A DNA stretch of 39,455 bases from a virus (taxonomy: Duplodnaviria > Heunggongvirae > Uroviricota > Caudoviricetes): IMG/VR virus record IMGVR_UViG_2526164602_000034; one strand, 5' to 3'. Under the pieces are notes generated by a model. That model was given only the letters and a program-made list of their open reading frames with translations. It was not told where the DNA came from and searched no databases. The translations under genes were made by a program, and so were the position numbers. This document shows, in pieces, positions 3,170 to 5,243 of the stretch. Numbering within the stretch: the stretch's first letter is position 1; every line of letters begins with the position of its first letter.

Positions 3170-3208
3170 TCCCGCCAGCCATATCATGACCGGCGGGATT
3201 TTTTTATT
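3170..3208 (+). terminator. Intrinsic terminator-like hairpin abutting the esterase stop codon
   Basis: TCCCGCC...GGCGGGA stem (3170-3176 / 3192-3198) with 15-nt loop, followed by TTTTTTTATT on the plus strand; on the minus strand it sits immediately 3' of the 679-aa gene but without a U tract. Confidence 0.45.
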
Positions 3209-5243
3209 CTGTTACCGCTTTTTTCACTTCCACCACAATGCTGTCAATCAGCACCGGGTAAGTTGCATTTTTTGTGATATCCGTTACGCGGAGTTTGTCC
3301 ACCGGGAAAGTTCCTACTGGTGACTGCGTCAGGGTAAACGCGGCACCATCCTGACCATCAATAACCGGAATAACCTGAAGGCTGTTATTTCCTGCAAAAC
3401 GGAAGGCCAGCGTATGCCATTCATTATCAAATGCACCAAAGGTTCCCAGTTTCTGGTTATTTGTTGCCACTTTTGCATTGTGGTACATCACATTCAGGTC
3501 TTTTGCGTCTGTCTGGATGTAGAACGATGCCAGCAGATTATTCCCTGCATCCCCTGTCAGGGTGACACCCTGCGGCAGAGAGGAAACCGGCCAGTAAAGC
3601 CCCATGACATACTGGTTTGCCACCAGGTCGCCAGGTACTTTAAAACGACAACTGATTAAACCACCATTTTTCAGCAGTTCAGCACCAGTACCGGCATCAT
3701 GATCCAGATACCAGGATGATTTACCTGTTTCCTTGGTCAGTTTCATTGCCTTACCACCTGTGCCTCCTGCATCACTGATAATTTCAGCTTTACCGCCAGC
3801 CGGCTCCCAGCCCTGGGCTTTCAGATTTCCTTCTGACTCACTGACACGATAAGACAGCAGTGTTGTGGTTACTGCTTCAGTTTCTGAAGGTGACGGCACT
3901 GGTGCTTCAGTTTCAGAAGATGGAACATCGGCTTTTACTGTGGTTCGCCCCGCATGAGTCAGAACTGCCGTGGCCAGACGGTCGGAAATAATCCCACGAC
4001 GTGCCCATGAACTGAAATGGCTGGCCCGGTCCGCAGATGTCCAGGTGGCGGCACTGTTACGCCACGTTGAGCCGTAATAACCAATGGATTCAATATCCGG
4101 GTCTTCTGCCGGATTGTTGGTGGGTACATTCGCGTCATTTTCATCTGTCATTAATGGAACGAAATGAATGTTTTTATCTGTTTTGTTTTTGTAGCCGCCA
4201 TAGATTGCCTGGTATGCCGGTTCATTTTTCTGTTTCCAGAAATACGTGGTATCGCCACAAATCCACGGAACGCCAGCAGCACTGCCACCGGTACACTGTT
4301 CCGCCTGTTCAGCCAGGTCTGCGCGGAATTTTTCCACCATCGCCAGAAACAGCGCGGAATGCTCCGTCGGCTTCGCATCAATATCAAACTCGCCCTGCAT
4401 CCACACCACAGCAAGCAGGCGGTTTTTCGGGTTCTTCGCCAGTGCCGCTTTTGTCCGGCTGATTAAGTCCTTATACAGCGGCTTATCCACACCCCAGCGG
4501 GCTGAGTCCTCTGAAGCACCCGTGCTGTCACTGTACGTGCCGTCAGCACCCGCCGTGAATGCAGAACCACCACGGCAGCAGGGAACCAGCAGAATCCCCG
4601 CATCTGCCGGAATAAACGGCAGCAGTTTTTTGGCAATGTGAAGCCCCTGACCCACGGTGCCATATTGCCCTTTAGCCACATCCGCTTTCGGGTGATTTTT
4701 TCCACTCATATCCTGCACATCATGCAGACAGTGGTCGGCCAGAATGATGTCGTTATACTGACAGGCTTTACCTCCCGGCGTGACTGTACTGCGACGGGCT
4801 AACTGCATAATACGCGGTTCGGGGCGGTCATATGTCTCCGGCAGTGGCAGACCTTCACCGTAAGCCATACCGTTTGACTGACCAGCAAGAACCACCACGT
4901 AATACCAGGAAGGGGAGCTGGAAGCAGTTTCATTTCCTGACGGACGGGTATGTGTTTCAGCATTATCCCAGTCTGACGGTTCAGCAGTACCGGCAACATC
5001 AGCACTTAACGGAATGACCGCACCAATACCCGCTCCGGTAATTTCCACACTCGGATCACCGGATACTGGCCTTACCCACAGGCAATCCCGTGTATTAAAA
5101 CTGATGAGACAGTCAGCAAATGTCATTCCTCCTTTTGTTTCGGCCGGAGGAAAGGGAGCCTCAAGAAATGCCGCTGTACCACCGGAAACTTTAACAGTAA
5201 AGTTTCCGGGCATTGATGATAGTTGAACCCATTTGGACGTCAT
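3204..5243 (-). CDS. Sialate O-acetylesterase-like (SASA/SGNH family) carbohydrate esterase with C-terminal lectin-like domain; resembles prophage NanS-p type enzymes
   Basis: VVVLAGQSNGMAYGEG (GQSN block) and VVWMQGEFD motifs typical of the sialic-acid 9-O-acetylesterase fold; about 230-aa C-terminal beta-rich domain; located between gin and com where Mu has no gene. Confidence 0.65.
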   Translation of the reverse strand: MTSKWVQLSSMPGNFTVKVSGGTAAFLEAPFPPAETKGGMTFADCLISFNTRDCLWVRPVSGDPSVEITGAGIGAVIPLSADVAGTAEPSDWDNAETHTRPSGNETASSSPSWYYVVVLAGQSNGMAYGEGLPLPETYDRPEPRIMQLARRSTVTPGGKACQYNDIILADHCLHDVQDMSGKNHPKADVAKGQYGTVGQGLHIAKKLLPFIPADAGILLVPCCRGGSAFTAGADGTYSDSTGASEDSARWGVDKPLYKDLISRTKAALAKNPKNRLLAVVWMQGEFDIDAKPTEHSALFLAMVEKFRADLAEQAEQCTGGSAAGVPWICGDTTYFWKQKNEPAYQAIYGGYKNKTDKNIHFVPLMTDENDANVPTNNPAEDPDIESIGYYGSTWRNSAATWTSADRASHFSSWARRGIISDRLATAVLTHAGRTTVKADVPSSETEAPVPSPSETEAVTTTLLSYRVSESEGNLKAQGWEPAGGKAEIISDAGGTGGKAMKLTKETGKSSWYLDHDAGTGAELLKNGGLISCRFKVPGDLVANQYVMGLYWPVSSLPQGVTLTGDAGNNLLASFYIQTDAKDLNVMYHNAKVATNNQKLGTFGAFDNEWHTLAFRFAGNNSLQVIPVIDGQDGAAFTLTQSPVGTFPVDKLRVTDITKNATYPVLIDSIVVEVKKAVTE

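Follow-up and report, generated by a model that had tools for sequence, protein, structure and literature searches.

Between the invertase gene gin and the gene com, bacteriophages Mu and SfMu have no gene; the two are separated by 94 bp in Mu and 82 bp in SfMu. In a Mu-like prophage carried on a 39,455-nucleotide stretch of DNA (IMG/VR record IMGVR_UViG_2526164602_000034; hereafter, the window), the same interval extends over about 3.3 kb and contains four open reading frames (ORFs), one of which encodes a 679 amino acid protein resembling sialate O-acetylesterases. The original prediction for this locus had remarked on a gene where Mu has none, which the Mu and SfMu distances bear out, and had regarded it as cargo with an accessory function unusual for this phage family. 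The question is what such an enzyme is doing in a transposable phage, and whether it is a passenger or belongs there. The reading we favour, with a probability of roughly 0.72, is that the gene is a fixed component of the phage and codes for a NanS-p family enzyme in three parts, which would be expressed late and released by lysis, and is possibly held on the virion.

Domain architecture and enzyme identity

The ORF (3204..5243, minus strand) is intact from its ATG start to a stop codon following 679 codons, and it is identical to ECs_4993 of prophage Sp18, a Mu-like phage of Escherichia coli O157:H7 Sakai, with which positions 2000-6000 of the window share 100% identity. ECs_4993 is annotated in Sakai as a hypothetical protein, while RefSeq names the same protein elsewhere either 'DUF6645 domain-containing protein' or 'sialate O-acetylesterase'. 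As an enzyme it is unremarkable, and automatic annotation has already given it a name. What is unrecorded so far is the replacement of one of its domains, its constancy in Sp18-type phages, a late-promoter motif in front of it and a link to a gene cassette containing PHROG 4772. ECs_4993, or any esterase in a Mu-like phage, was not found mentioned in the literature searched. To our knowledge, NanS-p enzymes have been studied only in lambdoid prophages.

The profile of Pfam family SASA (PF03629) matches residues 116-312 (E=6.5e-12), that of DUF6645 (PF20350) matches residues 524-642 (E=2.4e-69), and PHROG 143 matches with 1027 bits. In comparison with known structures, residues 104-428 align with the chromosomal esterase NanS, or YjhS (PDB code: 3PT5; E=1.9e-118, 57% identity), and residues 459-674 with the C-terminal domain of NanS-p (PDB code: 6YP6; E=1e-111, 79% identity). 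These matches agree with the earlier assignment of a SASA/SGNH esterase with a C-terminal lectin-like domain, the esterase part of which had been based on the GQSN and WMQGEFD motifs of the 679-residue ORF. The motifs are found at residues 121-124 and 281-287 (QGEFD at 283), and with GGSAF at 225 and RASH at 406 they make up blocks I-IV of the SGNH family as defined previously (PMC10462455). Ser123 (window 4875-4877) and His409 (4017-4019) align with the Ser of GQSN and the His of RSSHFS in 3PT5; both residues and the blocks GQSN/GGSAF/QGExD/RxxH are conserved in all alleles examined. A Ser/His/Asp triad had been anticipated, and the Ser and His are indeed in place, but the position three residues before the catalytic His is occupied by Arg, as in NanS. 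With Arg replacing the Asp of a DxxH motif, the site is of the dyad type, Asp being optional in the NanS subgroup. The C-terminal domain retains the aromatic residues proposed to form the sugar site, Y545/Y550/Y575/F646 corresponding to Y510/Y515/Y540/F611 of NanS-p from phage phi24B.

The NanS-p proteins of EDL933 and O104:H4 are reported to be active esterases on Neu5,9Ac2 and on mucin, and esterase activity has been reported for lambdoid NanS-p alleles only (PMC8065619). By homology, the gene product is a sialate 9-O-acetylesterase of the NanS-p family. Sialic acid is the substrate indicated by its catalytic and binding domains, and specificity for the 9-O-acetyl group would be that of the relatives with reported activity.

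The N-terminal portion of the protein departs from this pattern. Identity with NanS-p of the Shiga toxin 2 (Stx2) phage 1717 amounts to 78% over residues 102-673, whereas the first 100 residues are unrelated; in the DNA, homology to the phage 1717 gene begins at window position 4905 (residue ~113). The likeness to lambdoid NanS-p that had been proposed from the sequence is thus well founded for the core, and does not extend to the three-domain layout as a whole, in which residues 1-79 (hereafter, the N-domain) are unrelated. The DUF1737 domain that the comparison had implied is absent, as no match to PF08410 was obtained even at E<=1. Among the homologues, DUF1737-free hits are nearly all proteins with the alternative N-domain or fragments. 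An AlphaFold 2 model of residues 1-78 is all-beta with a predicted local distance difference test (pLDDT) score of about 80, and residues 80-118 score below 50. The N-domain has no Pfam match, and neither an internal duplication nor a donor for it was found within the prophage. Inspection of the ORF revealed no hydrophobic signal sequence at the N-terminus. A match of the linker region to a 1,445-residue repeat protein (P0005) was dismissed as low-complexity similarity.

Distribution, selection and cassette exchange

Prevalence was counted over 5,426 complete E. coli genomes. The com/mom block of Sp18-type phages was located at 285 places in 233 genomes, the N-domain allele of the window (allele A) at 246 places in 205 genomes, and a second allele (allele B, 59-62% identical to A) at 39 places in 28 genomes. 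Added together, the figures for alleles A and B come to exactly those for com/mom, which implies that each prophage copy has one esterase gene and that the gene is absent elsewhere. Sp18-type prophages with the esterase accordingly occur in 233/5,426 genomes, with up to four copies each, and the carriers are mainly bovine and human E. coli that produce Shiga toxin (STEC). All 34 IMG/VR loci with the N-domain have an identical gene order wherever the flanks are present, namely tail fibre/gin, N-domain-esterase-DUF6645, DUF1378, DUF826, com and mom. Two further alleles of the N-domain, C (29% identical; Salmonella and Serratia) and D (37% identical; another Mu-like element), are found at the identical position and joined to a NanS-type core. 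Diverged esterase alleles recur in prophages of Escherichia, Shigella and Salmonella and in one partial Serratia record; a scan of one genome per species with N-domain patterns returned nothing confirmable. The esterase is a fixed member of the Sp18-type Mu-like lineage, and not occasional or one-off cargo.

The allele-C esterase cluster (P0008; Salmonella and Serratia) has eight members in the database, every one a partial protein, and the sole contig of this cluster examined (L005) ends within the esterase gene. Draft assemblies apparently break at this point owing to the repeated presence of the core in several prophages.

Purifying selection acts on the N-domain. When alleles A and B are compared, the proportion of nonsynonymous differences in this domain is 0.23 against a saturated synonymous proportion of 0.77. 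Comparison of allele A with the allele of mosaic prophages gives a ratio of nonsynonymous to synonymous substitution rates (dN/dS) of 0.10, similar to that of the catalytic domain; linker 2 is fast-evolving, with dN/dS of about 0.5. On both flanks, N-domain and DUF826 included, the mosaic prophages themselves (L015-L018) match the window with 95-100% identity; identity falls to 27-72% between positions 4895 and 2854, an interval that covers the esterase core, the lectin-like domain and DUF1378. The left breakpoint lies between 4926 and 4895, inside linker 1, where homology to lambdoid nanS-p begins. With the flanks conserved and the core diverged, the payload has evidently been exchanged as a cassette while the N-domain was retained. 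No donor of the alternative cassette of L016 was found among deposited phages.

These data bear on the view that the gene is purely of benefit to the host, a moron with which lysogens feed on O-acetylated sialic acids, the N-domain being an appendage for folding or solubility or a relic of recombination. Such is the role generally accepted for NanS-p in STEC, and it suits the range of carriers; no structural match of the N-domain hints at a binding function, and the domain does not co-diverge with the capsid protein. It is harder to reconcile with purifying selection as strong on the N-domain as on the catalytic domain, with the survival of the N-domain intact through swaps that break exactly at its linker, and with the existence of at least four N-domain alleles, down to 29% identity, that are always joined to an esterase in Mu-like contexts. 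Moreover, other phage types place other modules (DUF1737 or a PHROG 895-like domain) on the same core, which argues for a role specific to the phage type. We therefore regard benefit to the host alone as somewhat unlikely.

Probable late expression and the possible place of the N-domain

A 17-mer, CTGAWATYCCGCAAARC, occurs in perfect copies at window positions 29218-29234 and 21300-21316, both on the minus strand and each 21 nt upstream of TACGCT or TATGCT. One copy lies between a C-like activator gene and the lysozyme gene, the other upstream of the head protease gene, and the two positions correspond to Plys and PI of Mu. The C-lys and G-I intergenic regions of Mu contain a related core, TCCCGCAC; we take the Mu promoters in these regions to be C-dependent. 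The perfect copies are likely to be late-activator sites of the phage; neither the baseplate gene nor com was seen to have one upstream. In the complete allele-B prophage (42.5 kb), allowing <=2 mismatches, exactly three sites were found versus 0.04 expected: Plys, PI and the gin-esterase spacer, which is 85 bp long and has the site on the correct strand. The corresponding site of the window (5302-5318) has four mismatches, with TATGAT 20 nt further on; a relaxed pattern that is itself partly derived from this site matches it and only two others. Scanning for the sigma-70 consensus turned up no convincing promoter upstream of the esterase, the number of promoter-like sites being below the expectation from shuffled sequence, and no strong terminator was found in the intergenic region between gin and the esterase gene. 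We infer late, activator-dependent transcription of the esterase, more firmly for allele B than for the allele of the window.

The N-domain has possible relatives among the 79-residue phage proteins of PHROG 4772. The match to the window allele is weak but nearly full length (E=3.5e-3), and that to allele D reaches E=1.9e-4, in comparison to 9e-15 to 2e-18 for bona fide members. Aligned with hhalign, a profile of alleles A-D and the alignment of standalone PHROG 4772 proteins give a probability of 64% with E=6.4e-5 and 17% identity, in a consistent register that includes W5, P33 and an LW[VI]R motif. The standalone protein is also predicted to be all-beta (pLDDT 92.7). Homology is probable. 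The standalone genes are located in Salmonella myoviral prophages directly after tail-fibre, tail-fibre-assembly or invertase genes.

In a group of Salmonella prophages (L047-L053), a three-gene cassette recurs behind the tail-fibre genes, consisting of PHROG 4772 (77-79 residues), a variable payload and DUF1353, the last a tail assembly chaperone according to PHROG 1158. The payloads that follow PHROG 4772 are either a 183-residue ILEI-domain protein, which resembles parts of giant tail proteins, or a 332-residue protein with a DUF4376 partner. The cassette has the look of an accessory module for the tail fibre or for decoration of the tail, and no description of it was found in the sources searched.

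Three other loci show how such modules are joined to the esterase. In a P2-like element (L044; 1264-3627), a PHROG 4772 gene of its own stands immediately before a distinct esterase-DUF6645 gene; in a Mu-like element (L043), a fused N-domain-esterase gene is followed by DUF1353; and in a gin-adjacent locus (L046; 6750-9074), a PHROG 895-like N-terminus is fused to a NanS-type esterase. With fronts of the DUF1737, PHROG 4772-like and PHROG 895-like kinds, one payload thus combines with different small modules across phage types.

A location behind tail-fibre genes could mean that the N-domain docks the esterase on the baseplate or tail fibres, where it would deacetylate a glycan of the bacterial surface (O-antigen, capsule or surface sialic acid) for adsorption, much as the esterase tailspikes known from other coliphages do. 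The gene does lie directly behind the block of tail-fibre, tail-fibre-assembly and gin genes, and the register-consistent similarity of its first domain is to proteins whose standalone genes always stand right behind tail-fibre or assembly genes, before a payload and DUF1353; the arrangements in L044 and L043 are in keeping with this, and the possibility has been raised for NanS-p in a review (PMC8065619). However, the region behind tail-fibre genes is a classic site for unrelated cargo too, and the relationship to PHROG 4772 is weak. The catalytic and sugar-binding domains share 78-79% identity with those of lambdoid NanS-p, which has been shown to act on sialic acids. Neither a trimerisation nor a beta-helix module was detected, and in Sp18 the esterase is not followed by DUF1353 or another chaperone. 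The N-domain allele also fails to co-vary with the N-terminus of the adjacent fibre or with gp47/gp48 alleles in the few loci compared. The original prediction had offered either a receptor-modifying activity next to the tail-fibre switch or a nutritional factor released by lysis; the tail-fibre-adjacent relatives of the N-domain keep the former in play. A tail-borne receptor modifier is, on balance, unlikely.

The head of the particle offers another conceivable mount. In phage phi24B the DUF1737 domain is reported to be a hexameric decoration domain that binds the T=9 capsid, and the esterase, gp84, to be a virion protein processed by cleavage at linkers near SSP motifs (preprint 10.64898/2026.04.10.717836). 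By analogy, the N-domain would bind the Mu-type capsid and the esterase would be displayed on the head until its linkers are cut; a different small domain is indeed found at the equivalent position, followed by a disordered linker with SSSP at 108-111. Alleles B, C and D do not conserve this motif, which was accordingly given no weight as an equivalent of the processing motif of phi24B. The DUF1737 domain that binds the capsid is lacking here, and the relatives of the N-domain adjoin tail genes, not head genes. Furthermore, phages with major capsid proteins of 97.8% identity have full esterase proteins that are only 66% identical (allele-B N-domains about 59%), so the N-domain allele shows no co-divergence with the capsid protein. 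Decoration of the capsid thus appears very improbable.

The reading of a fixed, late gene for a three-part NanS-p enzyme can accordingly be set out as follows. The SGNH/SASA domain (residues 114-430), with a NanS-type Ser123/His409 dyad, would, as judged by homology, strip sialic acids on mucin glycans, for example Neu5,9Ac2, of their 9-O-acetyl groups, and the lectin-like jelly-roll domain (residues 459-679) would bind carbohydrate. The predicted beta domain of residues 1-79 takes the place of DUF1737, tethered to the esterase by a disordered linker. Transcription of the gene, placed after the tail-fibre/gin block, would start late from its own promoter of the Plys/PI type, as the shared motif suggests. 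Lacking a signal peptide, the protein would leave the cell only upon phage lysis, after which the free enzyme would make O-acetylated sialic acids usable by surviving lysogens. The esterase core, the sugar-binding domain and DUF1378 behave as an exchangeable cassette, the N-domain staying with the phage backbone. More speculatively, the N-domain may also hold the enzyme on the virion; if so, the tail would be a likelier site than the head, because the relatives of the N-domain are encoded next to tail-fibre genes and the N-domain shows no co-divergence with the capsid protein.

Carried further, the N-terminal modules (DUF1737, the PHROG 4772-like domain of Mu- and P2-like myoviruses and the PHROG 895-like domain) could conceivably be interchangeable docking adaptors, by which each phage type mounts a shared payload on its own virion, with a tail mount in Sp18-type phages and the payload cassette swapped freely among the prophages of one host. 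We put this forward as a tentative extension, and one that may well prove wrong. If true, unrelated morphotypes of enteric temperate phages have converged on a particle-borne, mucus-modifying enzyme, and the interest of the locus would rise if the modules prove to be virion-docking adaptors.

A Mu-like transposable phage common in STEC carries its own copy of the esterase as a constant and apparently late gene, and counts of nanS-p alleles per strain that use DUF1737 or a lambdoid context will miss this copy. The replacement of DUF1737 by a different conserved module provides an experimental handle on whether the enzyme serves the phage particle or only the lysogen, and recombination at a clean domain boundary illustrates the modular exchange of gene parts among unrelated phage types in one host.

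Gene neighbourhood and comparison with known systems

The features of the locus are summarized in Table 1. The DUF1378 gene is the customary partner of nanS-p in lambdoid phages and swaps along with the esterase core in the mosaic relatives. DUF826 is also found 3' of nanS-p in lambdoid phages, and in the mosaics it remains with the Mu-like backbone. The pairing of nanS-p with DUF1378/DUF826 is known in Stx2a phages (PMC10462455). The remainder of the insert between gin and com is filled by ECs_4996. This AT-rich ORF, which is encoded on the opposite strand and has two CxxC pairs close to its C-terminus, is in related prophages often broken, shortened or replaced; it has no match in Pfam, NCBIfam or PADLOC. 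A role of the insert in defence is unsupported, since NCBIfam and PADLOC gave no match for the esterase or its small neighbours.

Table 1. Positions of the esterase gene, its domains and the surrounding features within the window
Feature	Position	Strand	Remarks
gin-type DNA invertase	5343..5903	-	Resolvase and HTH_7; upstream neighbour of the esterase
gin-esterase intergenic region	5244..5342	-	17-mer CTGAATTAACGCAAAAT at 5302-5318; TATGAT at 5276-5281
Esterase ORF (ECs_4993), 679 residues	3204..5243	-	ATG start, intact
N-terminal domain, residues 1-79	5007..5243	-	Predicted all-beta small barrel; not DUF1737; probable weak relative of PHROG 4772
Linker 1, residues 80-113	4905..5006	-	Predicted disordered; Ser/Thr/Pro-rich; SSSP at 108-111
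SGNH/SASA esterase domain, residues 114-430	3954..4904	-	Pfam SASA; 3PT5; four blocks
Linker 2, residues 431-458	3870..3953	-	Pro/Ser/Glu/Thr-rich
C-terminal lectin-like jelly-roll domain (DUF6645), residues 459-679	3207..3869	-	DUF6645; 6YP6
DUF1378 gene, 60 residues	2875..3057	-	DUF1378 E=1.2e-38; hydrophobic N-terminus; directly downstream of the esterase
DUF826 gene, 81 residues	2594..2839	-	DUF826 E=2.8e-15
ECs_4996, 154 residues	2091..2555	+	phrog_26524; between DUF826 and com
com/mom region including GATC palindrome	1085..2060	-	Palindrome at 2020-2044 precedes com
com	1776-1976	-	Zn_ribbon_Com; downstream side
mom	1085-1822	-	PF25680; downstream side

Upstream of com (window 2011-2065) lies a palindrome with GATC sites, AATCGATCGACAAAAACGATCGATT, and the letters 'atcaattaa' that precede it resemble the 3' end of Mu gin. 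The palindrome looks like the counterpart of the Dam-site region of the Mu mom promoter, which lies upstream of Mu com, and this arrangement suggests that the insert entered upstream of the palindrome. Two GC-rich hairpins lie between the esterase stop codon and DUF1378 (window 3110-3200), one example being ACTCCTTCGGGAGT and then ATTTTTATTT at 3126-3139. Their T-runs are on the plus strand, and it is therefore antisense and not sense transcription that would be terminated.

According to published work, Sp18 is predicted to be intact, is not inducible by mitomycin and has its DNA packaged efficiently and spontaneously (PMC2669165). Window positions 1-957 represent the first ~319 codons of ureC, the gene for the urease alpha subunit, truncated by the right end of the prophage; the insertion site is thus ureC in the window versus sorM in Sakai. 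The junction between ureC and the prophage was seen in none of the 5,426 E. coli genomes, as is expected for a transposing phage. Antisense within ureC, positions 151-429 (minus strand) match the Rfam family 5_ureB_sRNA with 86.5 bits (E=3e-21), which may reflect conservation of the urease gene rather than a true E. coli small RNA. ARAGORN detected no transfer RNA (tRNA) across the whole window. In the allele-B prophage, RefSeq annotates a 'tRNA-OTHER' (L041 19013-19092) between the head morphogenesis gene and gene G, for which the counterpart in the window is at about 21950-22035.

Four known systems invite comparison. The protein gp63.1 of coliphage G7C is an SGNH-type esterase tailspike with an N-terminal attachment module, a proven virion component that acts on the host O-antigen. 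The likeness lies in a phage esterase of the SGNH type with a module in front and O-acetyl groups of a glycan as its target; the closest relatives of the window protein act on sialic acids. NanS (YjhS), the chromosomal 9-O-acetyl-N-acetylneuraminate esterase of E. coli, is a single-domain protein of about 330 residues belonging to the nan regulon. The catalytic domain is homologous to it over its full length, with the GQSN Ser and the R-x-S-H-F-S His aligned, whereas the window protein is phage-borne and adds the N-terminal domain, two linkers and the lectin-like domain. The standalone PHROG 4772 proteins of Salmonella P2-like and other myoviral prophages, at 77-79 residues, are like the N-domain in size, all-beta class and position before a payload; they differ in being encoded by separate, unfused genes, in payloads that are usually non-esterase and accompanied by DUF1353, and in sequence, with 17% identity.

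The fourth system is lambdoid NanS-p, represented by L0105/z1466 of 933W, vb_24B_21 (gp84) of phi24B and gp44 of phage 1717. It shares with the window protein the SASA/SGNH core and its four blocks (78% over residues 102-673), the DUF6645 lectin-like domain with the aromatic residues of the sugar site (79% to 6YP6), and the downstream DUF1378 and DUF826 genes. Neither has a signal peptide, and both are apparently products of late genes. In contrast, lambdoid NanS-p has DUF1737 where the window protein has the unrelated, predicted all-beta residues 1-79. The lambdoid gene lies between stx/Q and holin, as seen in phage 1717, and is served by the pR' promoter, whereas the gene described here lies between gin and com of a Mu-like transposable myovirus and has an apparent promoter of the late, C-type kind of Mu.

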